DNA of 64,000 nt, taken from Dictyostelium discoideum. Its lineage: Eukaryota. The DNA is taken from positions 1,920,001-1,984,000 of the forward strand of contig CM000150.2 of assembly GCA_000004695.1 (NCBI GenBank), given 5' to 3'. Below are positions 1 to 50,716 of this stretch, in pieces; position 1 is the stretch's first letter, and each line of letters opens with the position of its first letter. A program made the translations under genes and the position numbers. The notes beneath the pieces were generated by a model that worked only from the letters and a program-made list of their open reading frames with translations, was not told where the DNA came from and did no database searches.

Positions 1-3000
1 AGTTCTTCACCGTCATTAAATAATCTAAGTCATCATAATAGTCATCATCTTAAAAAACCATCATCAATATTATCATCATCATCTTCATCATCACCATCTT
101 TATTACCAAAAAATAATAATGATAATAATAATAATAATAATAATGATGGAGCAAATAAAATAAATAATAATAATAATAATAATAATGAAGAGAATAGTGG
201 TAGTGGTAGTGGTAGTTCCCATAGTGGTAATATACCAATTGTAATATTAAAGAAAACTCCATTAGTTAAGAATGGTATTGAACTTGATTTTTCAGGTAAA
301 GCAAGTAAAGAAGGTATTTTTTCATTATGGAGTAATGCATTAGAAAAAAAGAAATTAAATTATACATCAAAAGAAATGTCAATTTTAATTGAACCACCAG
401 ATTCATCAACATTTTTAATTAATTCACCATTATTAAATAGTTCTGCAAATGGTTCAAAAATAAAATCATCAACAGCAACAACAAGACAATCCCAACAGCC
501 ATTAGCACAACAAGAAGAGAATTCAACTTTATTCGAATTAACTCATCATTGTATATTCTTTCCAATTAATAGTAACAGTTTAATAATTAAAAAAGATATT
601 GTCACAACAATGAATTATTATTTTTGTCAAATTATTAAAGAATCATCAACAAGTATTAAAATTATAATTAAAACATTATTTGAAGTATTTGGATTTTATT
701 TAGATTTAGCTAGAAAATTAGAAGAGGATGAAAATAATGATTTAAGTAGTAATAGCAACACCAATAATGCCAATAGTAGTAATAGCAATAAAACAATGAT
801 TTATTTAATAAATTCATTAGATAAATTAATTCAAGATAGTTTATTCACAAAATTTAGAGATCCAACAAATGAATTTCAATTATCATCAATTCAAAGATTA
901 TTTATAAATATATTGACCGATCAATTGAAATCAATTAAAAATCAGTCAATGACAAGTATGATTTTTAATGATTGTATACAAAAATTTAATTTCATTTTAT
1001 CAATTGTAATTGAAAAAGTTGAACAATATAAAAACTCGGAAATAATTAAACAATCATTACGTTTAGATAAATATTTAGAGAAAACTTTATTTTTAAAATG
1101 TAAACATCTTTCAAGTAGAGAATACTTTTTAGCTCAATTAAAATTTAGAAAATTTTCAATTGATTATAATCAATATTATAAATCATTAACAAATTTTCAA
1201 CAATGGAAAAAACAAGAAGAATTAACAATTCAAAAATTATCACAACAAACACTTCAAAGAGATGAATATTTAAAAACTGTTTGGGGTATTAATAGTAGTG
1301 GTGGTAGTAGTAGTAGTAAAAATAATAAAAATTTTGATAATTCACCAATTGGTGTTATTGTAATTAAAGTGGTTTCAGCACGTGATTTAATTCAAAAAGA
1401 ATCACAATCAATTAAACCTGAATCATTTGTTGAAGTAGAATTCATTTCAAATTCATCAAAAGATTTTAATAAAAAGAAAAGAACTAAAAAAATTAATAGT
1501 TTAAATCCAATTTGGAAAGAACATTTTAGTTTTCAAATTACAAAACAACAATTAAATGATGAAATTGAATTAACAATTTGGGATTCATCAACATCATCAT
1601 CAACATCATCATCATCATCATCATCATCATCTTTATCAACTGATAAATTTAATTTTCAAGGTAAATGTAAATTTATAGTTAAAGATTTAATGATTTATTT
1701 AAAAAGAGAAGTTAATTGGTATCCACTTCAAAAAAGAACATCAAGAAGTAAAGTTAGTGGTGATTTAAAATTACAATTTAATTATTTACCATATCCAGAA
1801 GCATCACCTGATAAAGTTATAAATTATGTTTATTATTTACAAATATTATTAGATAAATTAATTGAAATTGATTCAAATTCAAATTTTAATCCAATTAATT
1901 TAAATAATGATGATTTAAATAATAATGGTAGTAGTAATAGTAGTGGTAGTAGTAGTGGTGGTAATATATCACCAATATTAAAAAAACAACAACAACAACA
2001 ACAACAACCAATAATTTTATCAAATCAATCAAATTTATTATTAAAAGAATTTTGTGAAAGATATGGTATAATGGAACATACTTTAAAATTATTTTATATG
2101 AAAAGATTAGTAGTTTCAACTATAAAATATTTATCATTAGAATATATTCCAGAGATTAGATTAATTTTAAAGAATACATTAGAGATAAAATTTGGTGAGA
2201 TTGGTTTAACACAAGAAGAGGATGAAATATTAAAAGAATCAGTTTCAGCACTTTCACAAGCTTGTAAAAGTTGGATTTCACATTATCATTCAGTTTTTCC
2301 ATTAAATCAACCCGCTGGTTCCCTAAGAATGTTAATCGATATTTATTATCTTTTAAAGAATTCTGAATTATCAATTTTACCACCATTACAAGATTTAATT
2401 AAAGAAACTTATTTAAATCGTTATAAACAAGCAATTATAATGTCAAATGATATTGGTAAATTAAATAGTTCAATTATTGTACCATCTGTAAAATTAAATC
2501 AACAACAACAACAACAACAACAACAACAAAAACAAGAAGATATTATTGATACAAAAGCATCAAAATTAATTAGAATTTGTGATATTTTATTATACAATTT
2601 AGAAATTGATAAAAAATATTTTTCAAGAGAATTTCCAAATGATTCACCAATTTTATTAATTTCAATTGAAGTTTATACAAATGAAATTTCAAAAGAGATT
2701 GATGAACTTTTAGAAAAAGGTTCAAATAGTTCAAATGAATTACAAGATTTCTTTCAACTTTATTTGAAATTAAAAGAGACAATGACTAAATTTAAAGAGA
2801 TTTATCCAAAGTTAGTATTGTTACCAATTCCAATTTTATTTAAACAAGTAATTATGCAATGGACTTTATTTTGTGCAGATCAATTGAAACAAGTTATAGA
2901 TAGATTATGTACCAATGAAAAATGGACACCTGTATCCTCTGATACTTTACATTCTGCTTCTGTTGGTGAGGTGATTTTAGGTTGTTATCATGCATTGGAT

Positions 3001-4218
3001 GTTATTAAAAGTTTGAGATGGGAAGATTTAATTAGGGATGATTATCATAAGAATAGTCATCATTCTCTATTTGAAATATTTGCAAATTTTACAATGGTGG
3101 TATCGGAATCTGTAATTTACTATACAAAGGTTATTAAAGATTTAAGTTTATCTGCATTGGATCAAGCTGCTGATGATATTTTCAAATTATCTGAATCTTA
3201 TTCTCAAGGTTTAGAACAAACCATTCAAAAGGTGTCATTACGTTTTAATAATATTCAAGCTTGTATTGGTCATGCTGAAGATTTAATTCAAGTGTTGATT
3301 AGAATCATGTCATCATATAAACTTTCAACAACAATCGTCAATGAAATGGCAACAAATACCTACAAGGCAATTAGCGCCAATGTTAGGACATTGGTTGATA
3401 GGATCTATGATAGGCTATCACCTGTGATTCAAGGTGAAATCTATAAAATCATTGGTATAGAATTAGATGATGGAAAGAATAAAAATAACATTGTTTTGGA
3501 TTTCTTTCAAAAGATTGAAAAAGGCTTTGAAGATGTTAAAACTAAAACAAGTTCTGCTGTGGGTGCTGCTGTTGGTAATTCTGAACTATATTACCTAAAC
3601 CAAGATAAATTACCAATCACCGTCAGATTAGAACCACTATTGAATTATATTGCTTCAAAATTAAAATTATTCTCTCAATATCTTTATTATCCATTGACAA
3701 AGTTATTGTTGAAAAGATGTTTCTATGGAATAATGCACGAGATTGAAGTCATTGTTTTCCCATCAAATAAAAAGTTGGTGTTGACAATGAATCAATTGGA
3801 TAAAATTGAAGCATTAATTAAAACTTTTAGTGAATTCTTTTTGGTTGATGGTGAAGGTTTATCTCAAAAAGCAATCGATAAACAATCTCAGGGTTTCATG
3901 ATTATAGTTTTGGCTTACAGAGAGGCTCTCAATAGTGGTGTTCATGATTTCGATCCATTAGGTTTAAAAATGGCTTTAAGAAATATTAATTTTACAAACT
4001 TAAAACCAGATTTAACTTATTTAAAGAAATTAAATATCAATCTAAAAGAAATTCCAAAACAATTGGATGTTTTCTCTCTCATTAAGAAATCTGTAGAAAA
4101 AAGACAAGAAGATAAAAAGAAAAGAGATGAATTAAGAAAACAAAGAAAATTAAATAAGAGTATTGGTTATTTAAATGAAAATCAACAATCTCAGAAATTT
4201 GATCCACCACCAAATTAA
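1..4218 (+). CDS. C2 domain-containing protein, 5'-partial. The long helical C-terminal region may be Munc13/BAIAP3-like.
   Basis: Frame 1 is open from base 1 (SSSPSLNNLSHHNSHH...) through the ORF-track Met at 376 to the TAA at 4216-4218, so the gene begins left of the window. A C2-like block is present (GVIVIKVVSARDLIQKESQSIKPESFVEVEF...LNPIWKEHFSFQI...IELTIWD), followed by about 850 aa of low-Asn, helix-rich sequence. Assigning the C-terminal part to the Munc13-homology family is tentative. Confidence 0.65.
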   Translation, partial: SSSPSLNNLSHHNSHHLKKPSSILSSSSSSSPSLLPKNNNDNNNNNNNDGANKINNNNNNNNEENSGSGSGSSHSGNIPIVILKKTPLVKNGIELDFSGKASKEGIFSLWSNALEKKKLNYTSKEMSILIEPPDSSTFLINSPLLNSSANGSKIKSSTATTRQSQQPLAQQEENSTLFELTHHCIFFPINSNSLIIKKDIVTTMNYYFCQIIKESSTSIKIIIKTLFEVFGFYLDLARKLEEDENNDLSSNSNTNNANSSNSNKTMIYLINSLDKLIQDSLFTKFRDPTNEFQLSSIQRLFINILTDQLKSIKNQSMTSMIFNDCIQKFNFILSIVIEKVEQYKNSEIIKQSLRLDKYLEKTLFLKCKHLSSREYFLAQLKFRKFSIDYNQYYKSLTNFQQWKKQEELTIQKLSQQTLQRDEYLKTVWGINSSGGSSSSKNNKNFDNSPIGVIVIKVVSARDLIQKESQSIKPESFVEVEFISNSSKDFNKKKRTKKINSLNPIWKEHFSFQITKQQLNDEIELTIWDSSTSSSTSSSSSSSSSLSTDKFNFQGKCKFIVKDLMIYLKREVNWYPLQKRTSRSKVSGDLKLQFNYLPYPEASPDKVINYVYYLQILLDKLIEIDSNSNFNPINLNNDDLNNNGSSNSSGSSSGGNISPILKKQQQQQQQPIILSNQSNLLLKEFCERYGIMEHTLKLFYMKRLVVSTIKYLSLEYIPEIRLILKNTLEIKFGEIGLTQEEDEILKESVSALSQACKSWISHYHSVFPLNQPAGSLRMLIDIYYLLKNSELSILPPLQDLIKETYLNRYKQAIIMSNDIGKLNSSIIVPSVKLNQQQQQQQQQQKQEDIIDTKASKLIRICDILLYNLEIDKKYFSREFPNDSPILLISIEVYTNEISKEIDELLEKGSNSSNELQDFFQLYLKLKETMTKFKEIYPKLVLLPIPILFKQVIMQWTLFCADQLKQVIDRLCTNEKWTPVSSDTLHSASVGEVILGCYHALDVIKSLRWEDLIRDDYHKNSHHSLFEIFANFTMVVSESVIYYTKVIKDLSLSALDQAADDIFKLSESYSQGLEQTIQKVSLRFNNIQACIGHAEDLIQVLIRIMSSYKLSTTIVNEMATNTYKAISANVRTLVDRIYDRLSPVIQGEIYKIIGIELDDGKNKNNIVLDFFQKIEKGFEDVKTKTSSAVGAAVGNSELYYLNQDKLPITVRLEPLLNYIASKLKLFSQYLYYPLTKLLLKRCFYGIMHEIEVIVFPSNKKLVLTMNQLDKIEALIKTFSEFFLVDGEGLSQKAIDKQSQGFMIIVLAYREALNSGVHDFDPLGLKMALRNINFTNLKPDLTYLKKLNINLKEIPKQLDVFSLIKKSVEKRQEDKKKRDELRKQRKLNKSIGYLNENQQSQKFDPPPN

Positions 4219-4768
4219 TACAAAAAAAAAAATATATATATAATAAAACAAAGTAATCTTGATTAAATTAATCAAAATCTTAGAAAAATAAAATAATCAT
4301 TATAATGATTTAAAAATAGATTAAATAATAGTTTTTTTTTTTTTTTTATTAAATTAAAAATCACCAGCTCTTGTAAAAGAGACAAAAGTTTGTGTTATCA
4401 ATAATTTAGTAATATTTATTAGTTTTTTTCTAAAATAAAAAAAAATAAAAAAAAAAAAAAAAATAATTAACTTCTTCTTTCTTTCTTTTTATTTTTTAGG
4501 ATTAATTCCACAATTAAAATCTTTAGTTTATTATAAAAATTTACCAACTCATTCACATCTTGATTTTGTATGTATTTTTTTTTTTTAAAAAAACCTATCT
4601 CCAAAAAAAAAAAAATTATTTTTTAAAATTAAAGAATTTTTATTTAATTTGTTTTTTGTTTTTCGATTTATATATTTGTTTATAATTTATTTTATAGTCT
4701 GGTTGGTTATATTTGATTCGGAAAGTTTTGTTTGGTATACACTTTTTTTTCTTTGGATTAAAATAAAA

Positions 4769-4948
4769 TCAAAAGTATGGACCGACTCCACCTTGAGGAC
4801 CGAGTGGATTATTTAAAATGGTAGTACTTTGAACATTTGATTTTTCAAAATTAATTGCAATTGATTTGGAATTGTTATCAAAGGTTTTACTTAAGGTTGA
4901 TGATGATGAGGATTTATTTAAAATTTTAGTTAATGAAGTGAAAATCAT
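4769..4948 (-). CDS. Small Ser-rich 59-aa protein (MIFTSLTKILNKSSSSSTLSKTFDNNSKSIAINFEKSNVQSTTILNNPLGPQGGVGPYF). Copy 1 of a tandem pair. It is not in the ORF track because it is shorter than 60 aa.
   Basis: Reverse-complement translation from the ATG (plus 4946-4948) to the TGA (plus 4769-4771). A paralogue lies 1961 bp away with in-frame substitutions only. The function is unknown. Confidence 0.4.
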   Translation of the reverse strand: MIFTSLTKILNKSSSSSTLSKTFDNNSKSIAINFEKSNVQSTTILNNPLGPQGGVGPYF

Positions 4949-5603
4949 TTTTTATTTTAGTGTAGTACTATTTTTATTATCTTGTTTAATTAAATTATAT
5001 TTTAATATTATATTTTAATATTTTATTATTATATTTTATTTTGTTTTGTTTTATTTATTTGAATAATGAATAGAAATGAAAAATCATTTTTTTTTAAATA
5101 CTTTAAAAAATAATAATATAAAAAATAATTAAATAATAAAATATAAAATAATAAAAAAAAAATAATAAATGTTAAAAATAGAATTTAACAAGTCGATGCT
5201 TGCGAATGTAAAAATAAAAAACGAGAAATAAGTTAATCTTAACATTATATTGATGATATAATTTGATCTAAGTGATGGAGAGAATATAATCAAAAATAAA
5301 TATTCAACTGAAGAATAACAATATTATGATAGTTGTCTTTCGGTATAGTTATTTATTGAACAAATAAAATTCATTTTTACACAAATGTTTCACTTTTAAT
5401 TGTGACGAATCCACAAATTACAAACACATAATTCACCCCTTTTTATATTTTTAAATTATTTGTTTTTATTTATTAATTGTTTTTATTTTTTTAATTATTT
5501 TTTTCATTTTTTTTATTTTTTTTTTAAGTGGTTGAACAAATTAATTTAAGGTTCCAAAATTAAATAAAAAAAAAATTAAAAAAACTCAATTCAATGAGTA
5601 ATT

Positions 5604-5635
<32 letters not shown>

Positions 5636-6729
5636 TCAATAATTGATTTTTTTTTTATTTTACTAATAATAATTCTTTTAAATTAAAAAAAATCAATTTT
5701 TTTTTTATTTTAATAATAATAATTCTATAAAATTAAAAAATCAATAATCTTAAATTTTTTTTTTTCAATAATCTTAAATTCCTACTTCTTTTGAAAGTAA
5801 TATTAATTTTTTTAATTGAAATGAAAATACTTTAGTAAAATTATTTACAAAATGATGCTGTGCTGCCATCAGGTATTTCCAAATCAAAAAGTAGATTATA
5901 TGTCCTCCAATCATTAAAACCCTCTGGAAAATTCATTTTTGTTGTTTTTTCTATATGAGTTTTGCTTAGAAGTGTTTTTTTTCAAATTTTCATTTTATTT
6001 TTTTTTTGAAATATTAATGATAATAATAATTGAATTAAAAATATAATATACAAAATTTTAAAAAAAACCCCCCCAAAAAAAAAAATAAAAATATTTACAC
6101 CAACTTTTCATTTTTACATAAAATTTAATGTTAGTACCAATTTTATTGTGATTCACCCAATTATAAAAACTAATACAAAAATTATTTCACCCTACATATT
6201 ACTTTAATTAATTTTTTTTTTTTTTTTTTTTTTTTTGGGGGTTTAACAAAATTATTTTAGTTTGAATTTAAATTAATTATTTTTAAAAAAACTAAAACAC
6301 AAATTATTCTTTTTCTTTTTTTGATTTTTTTAATTTTTTTAATTTTTGTTTGGTCTAAAGATCAAATAAAATGACTAAAACAATTAATTCTTCTTTTTGA
6401 TTTTTTTTTTGCCAAAAATTCAAGTTATGAAAAATTTAGAATTAAATCGGAATTAATTAATTTTTAATTTTTAATTTTTAGTTTTTTTTTTAAAAATAAT
6501 AAAAAATAATAAAAAATAATAAACTTTAATATGTAATTATACTATCTTTAAAATAAAAAATAGAAAAAAAAAAAAAAATTATAATTATAGTATAAATTAG
6601 TTTATTTTTTTGTTTTTCGATTTTTATATTCGTTTATAAACCCATATGGTTGGTTATATTTGATTCGGAAAGTTTTGTTTTGTAGAGTTTGATGGAAATC
6701 TTTTTTTTCTTCTTTAGATTAAAATAAAA

Positions 6730-6909
6730 TCAAAAGTATGGGCCAACACCACCTTGTGGACCAAGTGGATTATTTAAAACTCTATAAACTTGAATATTTG
6801 ATTTTTCAAAAGTAATTGCAATTGATTTTTGGTCAATATCAAAGGTTTTATTTAAGGTTGATGATGATGAGGATTTATTTAAAATTTTAGTTAATGAAGT
6901 GAAAATCAT
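6730..6909 (-). CDS. Paralogous small 59-aa protein (MIFTSLTKILNKSSSSSTLNKTFDIDQKSIAITFEKSNIQVYRVLNNPLGPQGGVGPYF). Copy 2.
   Basis: Same length, same start and stop context as copy 1. There are 13 aa substitutions and no frameshift, which is consistent with a maintained coding frame. Confidence 0.4.
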   Translation of the reverse strand: MIFTSLTKILNKSSSSSTLNKTFDIDQKSIAITFEKSNIQVYRVLNNPLGPQGGVGPYF

Positions 6910-8289
6910 TTTTTATTTAATTTATATTTTTATTTTTATTAATTATATTAAATTAAATTATATTTTTATATTAAATTATAATATTTTATTTTATTTTATT
7001 TTATTTGTATTGAATAATGAATAGAAATGAAAAATCATTTTTTTTTTTTTTAAATACTTTAAAAAAAAAAAAAAATAATAAAAAATAAAAATTAAATGTT
7101 AAAAATAGAATTTAACAAGTCGATGCTTGCAAATGTAAAATAAAAAAACGAGAAATAAGTTAATCTTAATATTATATTGATGATATAGTTGGATCTAAGT
7201 GATGGAAAGAATAAAATCAAAAATAAATATTCAACTGAAGAATAACAATATTATGATAGTTGTTATTCGGTACAATTGTTTATTGAACAAATAATTTTCA
7301 TTTTTACACAAATATTTCACTTTTAATCGTGACGAATCCAGAAATTACAAACACACAATTCACCCCCTTTTTTATTTTTTAATTATTTGTTTTTATTTTT
7401 TAATTATTTTTTTATTTTTTCATTTTTTTATTTTTTTTTAAGTGGTTGAACAAATTAATTTAAGGTTTCAATTATTAAAAATAAAAAAAAAAACTCAATT
7501 CAATGATTAATAATTATTTTTTTAAAAAAAAAAAAAAAATCAATAATTCAATAAAATTAAAAATAAAAAATAAAAATAAGATTCCAATGAAATAATTTTT
7601 TTTCTTTAACATAATTCCTAGGATCTAAACTTATATTAAAAATTTTTTTTTTTTTTTTCAATAATCTTAAATTCCTCCTTCTTTTGAAAGTAATATTAAA
7701 TTTTTTAATAGAAACTAAAACACTTTGGTAAAATTATTTACAAAATGGTTAAATATATATTAATCATTTTTAAATAATTAATTTTTAAATTCCAAATAAA
7801 ATAATTATGTTCAACCCCAAAAAAAAAAAAATAAAAAAAAAAATTAAAATAAAAATTAAAGTAATGGGTGAAATAATTATTGTATTGTGGAATGATTTAT
7901 ATAATTATGTGTATAAATGATTATTATTTTTTACACAATAAAATTGGTATATCATTATATTGGTAATTTTTCAGTTGGTAATACCTCATCGATCTGATTT
8001 AATCAAAAATTAAAATGATTAGATAATCCTCATTTAACTTATTTTTAATTATTTAAAATATTATTTTCGAAAACATTGATTTGTTAAATAACTATACTGT
8101 GATTATTTGTTTGTTCTATTTATAACTTTTTATATTTATTTTTTTAAAATTTTTTTTGATCCAAAATTAACAAATTCTTTTAAATTTCCAATTTTTATTT
8201 TTTTCATTTTTTTTTTTTTTTTTTTATCATTTTTTTTTTTTATTTTTTTTTTTTTTATTTTCAATAAATTCACACCTTTCAACATTAAA

Positions 8290-9267
<978 letters not shown>

Positions 9268-9336
9268 ATTGAATAAAATAAAAAAAAAGAATTTAGTAGA
9301 ATTATAAATAAGTAAATTATAAATAATGATAAATTA

Positions 9337-9921
9337 ATGATTAAATTAATAATTTTAAAAATTACTAAACAATATAATATTAATTTCTCAACATTCAATA
9401 ACAATAACAATGTTGAAGCAAGATATCTTTTTAAACAAGATAAAGATTTAAAAGTTCAATATAATTCTAAAATATTAGATATATTATCAATTAATTTAAA
9501 ATTATTATATGAATGTAATATCTTTGAATTATTTAATGAAATAATAATAGAGAGTAATTGTTATCATCTTAATAATCGATCAATAATAAGTATTGATAAT
9601 TTTATAATTATAAATCCTATTATTGCAAATTATATAATAAAAAATAAACCAATTTTACAACAATTCAAATTCACTTTAAATTGTATGCCATATGATGATG
9701 ATGATGATGATGATAATAATTTATTTTTTAATAATATTAATTTTATTATAACACCGAATTGTTTAATAAATATTAACAAATTAAAATTTTTAATTAAAAA
9801 TCATGATGTTTTACTTTTAAATAATATTTCAATAGTTTTAAATTCAATATTAAAATCAAAAGATTTAGAATGTTTTAAAGTTTTAATGAAATTTATTCAA
9901 ACTTATTATCAACAATTTTAA
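9337..9921 (+). CDS. Hypothetical protein, N-terminal part (194 aa). It is in the same frame as the next ORF and separated from it by a single TAA.
   Basis: ORF track. Position 9337 and position 9940 are both congruent to 1 mod 3. The only stop between the two ORFs is the TAA at 9919-9921. Confidence 0.35.
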   Translation: MIKLIILKITKQYNINFSTFNNNNNVEARYLFKQDKDLKVQYNSKILDILSINLKLLYECNIFELFNEIIIESNCYHLNNRSIISIDNFIIINPIIANYIIKNKPILQQFKFTLNCMPYDDDDDDDNNLFFNNINFIITPNCLININKLKFLIKNHDVLLLNNISIVLNSILKSKDLECFKVLMKFIQTYYQQF

Positions 9922-36700: not shown

Positions 36701-36749
36701 AAAATTTTAAAAATGGATAGGAGCAAAAAAACGAAATTTCATCAAAAAT

Positions 36750-36822
36750 GCCTGGATGGCTCAGTAGGCAGAGCGAGCGGCTGTTAACCGCTAGGTCCAT
36801 GGTTCGATCCCATGTCTAGGCG
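36750..36822 (+). tRNA. tRNA-Asn (anticodon GTT), copy 1.
   Basis: The sequence GCCTGGATGGCTCAGTAGGCAGAGCGAGCGGCTGTTAACCGCTAGGTCCATGGTTCGATCCCATGTCTAGGCG folds as a cloverleaf. The acceptor stem is GCCTGGA/TCTAGGC. The anticodon stem is AGCGG/CCGCT with loop CTGTTAA. The T-arm is CATGG-TTCGATC-CCATG. It has an internal B box and no intron. Confidence 0.9.
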
Positions 36823-36850
36823 AATTTTTATACTTCCCTTCATATGTCAC

Positions 36851-49829: not shown

Positions 49830-50454
49830 AAAAAAAAAACTGAAAAAAACAAAATCAAAATCAATTTTGATTAAAACAAAAAAAAAAAAAAAAAAAAAAA
49901 AAGATAAGAAAGGATTAAAAATTTACTTTTAATTATTTAATAGTAAAACTATGGACTTTTTTTTTTTTATTATGTATTATTATAAATAAAAAAAAATAAT
50001 AGATAAACCCTTCTTTATTTATTATATATATATATATATAAAATATATATAAATATATATTTCATATAATTCAAATACAACTTGAAATTTTCAATCATTT
50101 ATTTATTTATTTGTCACTCTTTTTCTTTTAATTCTTGTATTTTTTTTTTTTCTTTTGCTTTGTGATTAAATAATTTTAAATATTGATTTATTAATATTAT
50201 TATTATTCCAATTCAAAAAAAAAAAATTAATATTATTATTATTTCTTGATTATTTTTCCAAAAAAAAATTATATATAATTTTGCTCAAAACAATTGGATT
50301 TATCTTTTTTTTAAAAAGAACAATAAAAATCCAAGTATAATTTTTAGCTATTTTCAATTTTTAAAATAAATAATTCCTGGAAAGAGATTTTGGTAATTTG
50401 AAAAACAATGAAAAAAAGGGAGAGGAGCAAAAAAAATGAAAATTCATCAAAAAT

Positions 50455-50527
50455 GCCTGGATGGCTCAGTAGGCAGAGCGAGCGGCTGTTAACCGCTAGG
50501 TCCATGGTTCGATCCCATGTCTAGGCG
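50455..50527 (+). tRNA. tRNA-Asn (anticodon GTT), copy 2. It is identical to copy 1.
   Basis: A 73/73 nt match to 36750-36822. The ~35 bp immediately upstream are also similar (aggagcaaaaaaa.gaaa.ttcatcaaaaatg). Confidence 0.9.
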
Positions 50528-50716
50528 ATATTTTTTTTAAGGTTTTTCCATTTAAAAAACAAAAAAAAAAAACCGAAAAAACAAAGAAATAAACGAGAAT
50601 TTATACATATAATAAATAAATCACTGTTATATCTTCACCGCCACATTCATTCCTCTTAATTTTACCCTTTTTTTGCTCAGTAAAGCAAGGGCTATCGTCC
50701 TATATACTTTTCAACA

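Follow-up and report, generated by a model that had tools for sequence, protein, structure and literature searches.

Arrays of very small genes built from inverted pairs are known in Dictyostelium discoideum from the sigN family, a set of 96 genes found only in Dictyostelium that code for HssA-2C-7E-like small proteins of less than 120 amino acids (aa) (Vicente et al. 2008, PMC2257962). The sigN genes are organized in inverted pairs attributed to the "successive duplication of a tandem of two inverted genes". Between the genes lie promoters of high conservation with G/T boxes of the GBF type and with paired heptamers that match the GBF consensus (T/G)G(T/G)G(T/G)G(T/G). The genes are silent in growth, are induced at ~10–12 h and are expressed in prestalk and stalk cells. 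In 89 of the 96 genes the first exon holds an open reading frame (ORF) of 13 nt and is separated from the second by an intron of 66–128 nt, and the 13 genes closest to sigN1 encode proteins of 87–89 aa (PMC2257962). Here we describe a family of even smaller genes through two of its members, DDB_G0268688 and DDB_G0268690. They lie on chromosome 1 of D. discoideum AX4 within a stretch of 64,000 nucleotides, hereafter the window (positions 1,920,001 to 1,984,000 of contig CM000150.2, assembly GCA_000004695.1), whose numbering is used below unless another sequence is named.

The sequence comparisons reported here suggest that each of the two copies is probably a complete small gene equipped with a 5′ regulatory module specific to its family, in which a conserved non-coding block would act as promoter or cis-regulatory module. 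The sigN family is the closest precedent and the present family is not a member of it. Both form tandem arrays of inverted pairs with homologous conserved 5′ modules, and both are silent in growth; the present genes have no reads at 0–11 h of development, yield reads from 12 h onwards and leave traces in stalk cells only, at very low counts. No sequence relationship to sigN was detectable (profile search of 1.84 billion cluster representatives; Pfam at E ≤ 10). The present genes are intronless, with an uninterrupted ORF and no 13-nt first exon, their proteins are shorter (53–71 aa) and lack the Cys/Gly-rich region, and their expression is orders of magnitude lower. In part 2 of the sigN gene list of PMC2257962, no single-exon chromosome 1 gene of 57–59 aa is present.

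The two small genes, their relatives and their transcripts

The two genes are intronless ORFs of 59 codons on the minus strand (4769–4948 and 6730–6909). Their start, stop and length are alike, as a first-pass annotation made from the letters of the window had reported. The same annotation placed them under the cutoff of its ORF list; they are indeed shorter than 60 aa, but both had already been annotated. The peptide translations match exactly the AX4 chromosome 1 hypothetical proteins DDB_G0268688 (XP_646865, Q55F05) and DDB_G0268690 (XP_646866, Q55F04). They are identical at 49 of 59 positions, which gives 10 differences and not the 13 counted previously. Both peptides are rich in Ser and Asn; their N-terminus (MIFTSLTKILNK) is conserved, and so is the NPLGxxGG motif at the C-terminus.

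The search for relatives proposed in the first-pass annotation was carried out with word-indexed and exhaustive profile methods and revealed at least nine AX4 genes coding for proteins of 53–71 aa on chromosomes 1 (DDB_G0268672, DDB_G0268674, DDB_G0268676, DDB_G0268688 and DDB_G0268690), 3 (DDB_G0278465 and DDB_G0278467) and 4 (DDB_G0283179 and DDB_G0283209). All are single-exon genes of 53–71 codons that start with MIF(T/N)(S/T)L..(I/F)(L/S)NKSS and carry (N/K)(P/K)LGx(Q/K)GG in frame at the C-terminus; in DDB_G0283179 the C-terminal motif is also repeated internally. Two further D. discoideum assemblies yielded additional copies, as did Logan read assemblies. L001 designates a second cluster, in another assembly, and L006 a locus of a third one (GCA_054859385.1) whose proteins match DDB_G0268672, DDB_G0268674 and DDB_G0268676 and which does not overlap the window; L002 to L005 are Logan contigs. 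Three subfamilies can be distinguished: A-type, to which both window genes belong, B-type, and the type of the most divergent copy, L003.

Nothing was found outside Dictyostelium, the profile search mentioned above returning the family only, and the proteins have neither a Pfam match at E ≤ 10 nor a sequence relative in the PDB. An AlphaFold2 model (predicted local distance difference test score, pLDDT, of 56) shows no secondary structure, and the peptide is predicted to be disordered. Searches of the literature by gene identifiers, accessions and peptide strings found no publication naming these genes, and they are not listed in the accessible parts of the supplementary material to PMC7078664 and PMC11367525. 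The two ORFs are thus annotated yet uncharacterized genes of an undescribed family confined to Dictyostelium.

Transcription was assessed in the supplementary RNA-seq tables of Kin et al. 2018 (PMC6198379) and Rosengarten et al. 2015 (PMC4403905), where low amounts of transcript were detected over the two ORFs. Among terminal cell types both window genes have 0 transcripts per million (TPM) in cup, spore and vegetative cells and 0.13–0.80 TPM in two of three stalk samples, stalk being the only positive cell type; the paralogues DDB_G0268672, DDB_G0268674 and DDB_G0268676 have a TPM of 0 in every cell type (PMC6198379). During development on filters no read of either window gene was recorded at 0–11 h (24 of 24 samples). 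DDB_G0268688 has 1–2 reads in five of the 14 samples taken at 12–24 h, and DDB_G0268690 has 1, 1 and 4 reads at 14–16 h (PMC4403905). In the suspension experiment of the same study, cells were given pulses of 30 nM cyclic AMP (cAMP) at 2–6 h and 300 µM cAMP from 6 h. Both genes were without reads in all 21 samples of 0–6 h and were detected at 8–12 h, after the addition of 300 µM cAMP, with normalized maxima of 3.7 and 5.0. Reads of the paralogue DDB_G0268672 are distributed in a like manner and reach a normalized value of 8.0, and the baySeq false discovery rate for DDB_G0268688 is 0.0025–0.006 (PMC4403905). The transcripts are very weak in amount and clear in timing, which is post-aggregative and dependent on high cAMP. 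Poor mappability of paralogous genes of 180 nt may depress the counts.

The duplicated DNA and its conserved 5′ module

The genes are embedded in a direct repeat of ~1.2 kb (4652–5854 versus 6606–7747; 82.5% identity over 1224 gapped columns in a self-comparison of the AT-rich window). The tandem unit of 1.96 kb originally proposed corresponds to the period of the repeat (1.95 kb) and not to the extent of the duplicated DNA. The intervening 751 bp (5855–6605) do not have a second copy beyond copy 2, and their sole recurring part is 6172–6289, found inverted at 7886–7767 (84%). Ungapped sub-blocks of the repeat are 89–93% identical, with spacings of 1961, 1927, 1914 and 1893 bp. The earlier estimate of ~10% difference between copies holds for these ungapped parts, but most of the AT-rich spacers between them differ by 15–20% (one by 7.7%) and contain many indels; the block has 7.8% mismatches and the coding sequence (CDS) 12.7%. 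There is no homology 3′ of 4652, the 3′ regions of the two copies having low-complexity matches only, and no further copy of the unit occurs in the remaining 56 kb of the window. The features of the locus are the following:

4652–4768, minus strand: 3′ flank of copy 1, with a downstream element (gene sense ...AAACTTTCCGAATCAAATATAACCAACCA...); homologous to 6606–6729 and to the 3′ flanks of L001 A-type genes
4769–4948, minus strand: CDS of DDB_G0268688, 59 aa, A-type; exact match to XP_646865/Q55F05
5057–5104, minus strand: proximal element of copy 1, with oligo-dT run, AAAGTATTTAA, upstream ATG (first base 5087) and upstream ORF (uORF)
5170–5440, minus strand: upstream block of copy 1, spanning −222 to −492 relative to the ATG; putative cis-regulatory module
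5526–5553, minus strand: up-box of copy 1, gene sense AACCTTAAATTAATTTGTTCAACCACTT; carries the second ATTTGTTCAA motif
5755–5854, no strand assigned: "tail" 1, centre of the presumed ancestral divergent intergenic region; homology between copies stops here at a rearrangement breakpoint
6122–6289, minus strand: inverted and truncated fragment of a B-type 5′ module (up-box and first part of the block), from window self-match and L006
6325–6583, no strand assigned: 3′ intergenic segment downstream of copy 2; 86% identical to L006 5988–6251
6606–6729, minus strand: 3′ flank of copy 2, in which the downstream element is conserved; homologous to the flank of copy 1
6730–6909, minus strand: CDS of DDB_G0268690, 59 aa, A-type; exact match to XP_646866/Q55F04
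7008–7060, minus strand: proximal element of copy 2, upstream ATG at 7038; uORF MIFHFYSLFNTNKIK
7097–7366, minus strand: upstream block of copy 2; includes a perfect GBF-type heptamer (7351–7357)
7440–7467, minus strand: up-box of copy 2, identical to 5526–5553
7648–7747, no strand assigned: "tail" 2, 93% identical to tail 1
7754–8154, plus strand: orphan B-type 5′ module (up-box and block) pointing away from copy 2; 89–91% identical to L006

The presence of a complex conserved non-coding block upstream of each ORF, noticed in the first-pass annotation, was borne out by these comparisons. The two blocks are 92–93% identical without any indel, and have a GC content of 24% and coding-like 3-mer entropy in the midst of flanks with 4–10% GC. 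Their distal end is G/T-rich (GGGGTG...TGTGTTTG...TTGTGG) and the internal motifs are ATTTGTTCAA, CTATCATAATATTG..TTCAGTTG and TTAACTTATTTCTCGTTTTTT. The ATTTGTTCAA motif is found twice per unit in the sense of the gene, and these copies represent four of its five occurrences in the 64-kb window.

The order up-box, block, proximal element with upstream ATG, and CDS is the same in every readable member of the family. The AX4 paralogues of chromosomes 1, 3 and 4 belong to the same protein family with the same 5′ module at each readable locus, the modules of relatives having been read in the other assemblies (L001, L006) and in the Logan contigs (L002–L005), not at the AX4 paralogue loci themselves. 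Each family ORF of L001 is preceded by a block that is nearly free of indels and 85–88% identical to those of the window (13–15% mismatch); identity of the up-box in L001 units is 86–97%. Divergence of A-type blocks is below that of synonymous sites in the CDS (proportion of synonymous differences, pS, 0.20–0.37; Fisher P of 0.036, 0.008, 0.002 and 0.10 in four comparisons), and among A-type copies the non-coding block is conserved at least as well as the CDS. A-type and B-type units are collinear in global alignment over up-box, block, proximal element and CDS, with identities of ~65% for the block, ~71% for the CDS and ~55% for the proteins. They share the up-box sequence TTTGTTCAACC and the block motifs GGGGTGAA, TTGTGGA, GTGTAAAAATGA..TATTATTT, CTATCATAATATTG..TTCAGTTG, TTAACTTATTT..CGTTTTT and TTGTTAAAT. 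L003 retains several of the block's islands as well as the proximal element, in a more compact arrangement with altered spacing.

The proximal element, present in A-type, B-type and L003 units, is 92–100% identical among A-type units. It features an oligo-dT run, TATTTAA and an upstream ATG 110–150 bp before the main ATG, the run with the following AAGTATTTAA lying 110–160 bp upstream, and two TTCATT motifs 11 nt apart. An upstream ATG with a short ORF was found in all homologues examined. In nine of 10 units the upstream ATG comes after the oligo-dT run and AAGTATTTAA, lies in the context AAAATG, 96–156 nt before the main ATG, and opens a uORF of 10–18 codons; in the degenerate B-type copy of L001 it is found at −61. 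The uORF begins with MIFHFYSLF.. in A-type units (MIFHFYSLFK, 10 codons, in copy 1), MKIHFISLSK in B-type units and MIFYFYFIIQ.. in L003. The A-type and B-type uORFs differ by one synonymous and four non-synonymous codon changes, and the frame is shifted in L003. The unit resembles conserved eukaryotic uORFs by having an upstream ATG and a uORF of 10–18 codons before the main ATG, but differs from them in that codon-level conservation of the uORF peptide is lacking. Since it is the nucleotides that are conserved and not the uORF peptide, the proximal element is read here as a candidate core promoter or leader.

The upstream ATG element (5085–5087 and 7036–7038, minus strand; found also in L001, L003 and L006) opens with ATGATTTTTCATTTC, which is like the main start ATGATTTTCACTTC, and its distance to the main ATG (96–156 nt) resembles the length of sigN introns. 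In copy 2 there is no G, hence no GT or AG, from the upstream ATG to the main ATG. The element may be what is left of a first exon that was lost, or of a duplication internal to the 5′ region. Another short sequence recurs on the opposite side of the genes: AAACTTTCCGAATCAAATATA..ACCAACCA (4699–4735 and 6645–6680), 35–70 nt past the stop codon, is kept in all A-type units of the window and L001. It may be a polyadenylation/termination signal or another binding site.

In the canonical promoter layout of Dictyostelium genes, a TATA-like box and an oligo-dT run reportedly precede the transcription start, and genes expressed after aggregation have G/T-rich GBF boxes further upstream. The present module matches this description by its oligo-dT run and AAGTATTTAA, by the G/T-rich motifs at the distal end of the block and by induction after high cAMP, but its conserved region is unusually long (~270 bp, indel-free) and only copy 2 has a perfect GBF heptamer. 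Elsewhere the matches to the heptamer reach six of seven positions only (GGGGTGA, TGTGTTT), and involvement of GBF is only a lead.

Under the reading that we favour, a family-specific 5′ region of ~600 bp would drive the ORF and would have been copied along with it at each duplication. The block and the up-box would be binding platforms for transcription factors, through which the genes stay off during growth and aggregation and become weakly active once aggregation is over and extracellular cAMP has reached high levels; the core promoter or the 5′ leader would be represented by the proximal element. A promoter or enhancer role of the block is suggested by its position and conservation.

Constraint on the peptide and competing explanations

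The CDSs of the window pair differ by eight synonymous and 14 non-synonymous changes, which correspond to a synonymous divergence (dS) of 0.235 and a non-synonymous divergence (dN) of 0.110 (dN/dS 0.47, not significant). There is no nucleotide change in codons 1–19, non-synonymous changes are concentrated at codons 25–27 and 39–44, and codons 45–59 have five synonymous and no non-synonymous changes. The frame is open over 53–61 codons in 10 sequenced copies of the three subfamilies, with NPLGxxGG in frame. The neutral chance of encountering no stop over the 47 substitutions between A-type and B-type is 0.02–0.05, and a composition-matched frame would stay open with P = 0.012. This family-wide open frame, the in-frame motif and the improbable avoidance of stops indicate that the ORFs code for protein, or did so until recently, and that their middle part varies freely. 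Of the selection on the peptide suggested in the first-pass annotation, the part that stands is the maintenance of the ORF across three subfamilies and the constraint on its ends, but selection is weak for the window pair alone. That annotation took lack of transcripts and of relatives, together with a dN/dS near 1, to speak against its proposal; this is not what was found, as the family exists and transcripts are detectable. The small peptides are presumably made and functional.

Several observations weigh against complete working genes with a promoter block. Transcript amounts are tiny (single-digit raw reads, TPM <1 in terminal cell types). The ratio of non-synonymous to synonymous differences (pN/pS) is 0.71 when four independent sister pairs are pooled (P = 0.12) and the ratio is 1.18 for one sister pair of another strain, so that overall constraint on the peptide is weak. 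Copies in decay are found in a B-type ORF with a scrambled C-terminus (L001 4834–5019, minus strand) and an A-type ORF devoid of its first 20 codons (L006 8912–9025, minus strand), which implies birth-and-death turnover within the clusters. The perfect GBF-type heptamer is found once, in block 2, and is missing from block 1. Finally, promoter elements of Dictyostelium are not expected to be as large as this 270-bp island, the composition of which is coding-like.

The main competing explanation is that the ORFs, and perhaps much of the family, are near-neutral relics of small genes that were young or once functional, now nearly silent and drifting, whose blocks resemble each other owing to recent duplication or gene conversion. 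The dN/dS values of independent pairs extend from 0.47 to 1.18, survival of the ORF in the window pair is unremarkable (neutral chance of no stop 0.17–0.24), expression is close to zero in most samples, and truncated or pseudogenized copies exist, the B-type partners being gone from the window altogether. We nonetheless consider this explanation unlikely. A-type, B-type and L003-type copies have all retained the ORF, its N-terminus and the C-terminal motif in frame, although their synonymous sites have diverged far (dS of 0.43–0.60 between A-type copies and B-type or L003 copies), and the last 15 codons of the window pair have changed at synonymous sites only. The block evolves slower than synonymous sites and is recognizable between subfamilies on different chromosomes, which conversion within a cluster fails to explain. 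The low expression is specific to certain stages, and replicates and paralogues reproduce it.

The first-pass annotation had left the choice for the block between a promoter and a small RNA. A non-coding RNA gene travelling with the ORF (small RNA, small nucleolar RNA (snoRNA)-like, or exon of a long non-coding RNA) would be in line with a GC island of 24% within DNA of 4–10% GC, as for RNA genes of Dictyostelium, with plus-strand TGATGA and CTGA sequences that are separated by ~55 nt and look similar to C and D boxes, and with conservation above that of the CDS among A-type copies. However, this is very improbable. A scan of 4200–8300 against Rfam, C/D snoRNAs and Dictyostelium Class I RNA included, gave no match at E ≤ 10, and single-sequence folds of both strands showed no extra stability over shuffled sequences (z-scores of +0.46 and −0.39). 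The RNAalifold covariation term is positive for four copies (+2.44); without L003, A-type and B-type sequences yield only 5–10 pairs at ~0 kcal/mol, and all 11 sequences together yield no consensus pair on either strand. No DUSE-like element is conserved by inspection of the alignment. Short conserved islands with variable spacing, as found in L003, are typical of binding sites. The lack of Rfam match, fold stability and covariation makes a cis-regulatory module the best reading of the block, and its patchy, collinear and spacing-tolerant conservation favours a promoter/cis-regulatory function.

Two more specific identities of the block were discarded: a C/D snoRNA on the plus strand (TGATGA...CTGA), because the C-box-like motif is absent from B-type blocks and the putative guide regions are not kept between copies, and a coding exon, because each frame has 3–11 stops and no ORF is common to the copies. 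A tRNA scan of the window detected only two genes, both distant from the repeat. These are identical tRNA-Asn(GTT) genes (36749–36823 and 50454–50528), 13.7 kb apart, whose ~40 nt of upstream flank are also conserved (123 bp, 95%).

A mobile (non-autonomous) or satellite-like nature of the ~1-kb unit, with an incidental ORF, can practically be set aside: units are indeed present on three chromosomes, in tandem and in either orientation, but no terminal inverted or long terminal repeats flank them, their only other ORFs are short and spurious with none transposase-like, the remaining 56 kb are free of copies, only ~9 annotated genes carry the unit, the copies of chromosome 1 and L001 stand side by side as under local duplication, and the ORF is conserved in frame.

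A probable decayed array of inverted pairs and its meaning

The organization of L006 provides a key to the history of the locus. It consists of repeated head-to-head pairs of an A-type gene (minus strand) and a B-type gene (plus strand) with a period of ~2.5 kb, and its tails (4856–4960 and 7306–7407) lie between the A-type and B-type modules. The window segment 7754–8154 matches L006 4973–5370 and 7506–7847 (89–91%), each of which precedes an intact B-type ORF. The fragment 6122–6289 matches L006 4990–5103 and 5151–5179, and its first part (6122–6150) matches 7961–7934 of the window. The L006 segment 5988–6251, which corresponds to window 6325–6583, sits between B-type and A-type genes. No B-type ORF is found anywhere in the window. 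The chromosome 1 paralogue cluster, as read in the other strain, has thus kept its head-to-head A/B pairs, whereas the window pair is without B-type genes. From left to right the window shows A-type gene 1 with its 5′ module, a tail, the breakpoint, unique DNA (5855–6120), the inverted B-type fragment, the 3′ intergenic segment, A-type gene 2 with its module, a tail and the orphan B-type module.

The ancestral unit of the array would have been a head-to-head A-type/B-type pair with ~1.4 kb of intergenic DNA between the genes, duplicated in tandem. Two A-type genes would have survived in the window, and their B-type partners would have been deleted, leaving behind an orphan 5′ module and an inverted fragment. 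Judged by these alignments, the window pair is better read as the decayed end of an array of A/B pairs than as a simple tandem duplication of 1.96 kb.

An unrelated ORF of 325 codons (MEDLFFKVY...), probably DDB_G0268692, starts at 8290, 136 bp past the orphan B-type module; in L006 the ATG of the B-type gene is found at 135 bp. This position behind a B-type module suggests that a promoter was captured or a gene replaced. Hardly any expression of DDB_G0268692 is recorded in the RNA-seq tables. On the other side of the locus, ORF 376–4218 carries a C2 domain and fits DDB_G0268686, which is listed as a protein with such a domain. The unique DNA beyond the breakpoint of copy 1 includes a 31-codon ORF (MNFPEGFNDWRTYNLLFDLEIPDGSTASFCK, 5841–5936, minus strand) of exon-like composition whose stop overlaps the end of the tail; no homologue of it was found and it is missing from the protein collection. 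In L006 a B-type gene (8001–9388) is annotated as a spliced product of 111 aa (P0015) that joins ~50 B-type codons to unrelated sequence. This is probably a mis-predicted gene model, since the plain ORF 8001–8168 encodes 55 aa. In L001 a 15-nt tandem repeat (3039–3292; QYNTI in one frame) is found directly past the alanyl-tRNA synthetase gene, adjoining the family cluster.

Antibodies against SigN disintegrate mounds. A bolder proposal, which we hold to be improbable, is that the present family codes for post-aggregative peptide signals or matrix peptides in the manner of SigN, under the double control of a cAMP enhancer and the uORF, or else that the block is transcribed into an unstructured regulatory RNA coupled to the peptide gene. 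In the former case an unusually long and strongly conserved enhancer block responding to high cAMP could be the first gate, and the conserved upstream ATG/uORF in the leader could be a second one, controlling translation.

The feature is real but ordinary: two annotated, uncharacterized small genes with conserved 5′ modules. Its impact is modest. The genes are expressed at very low levels and have no known function, and an architecture of this kind had been published before. What is new is the grouping of nine genes into a family for which no database or literature entry was found, together with its array of inverted A/B pairs, a block at least as conserved as the CDS, and trace expression that is stage-specific. 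For Dictyostelium biologists, the locus offers a ready-made, phylogenetically footprinted, putative post-aggregative promoter, and the family adds a second case, beside sigN, of small-protein arrays derived from inverted pairs.

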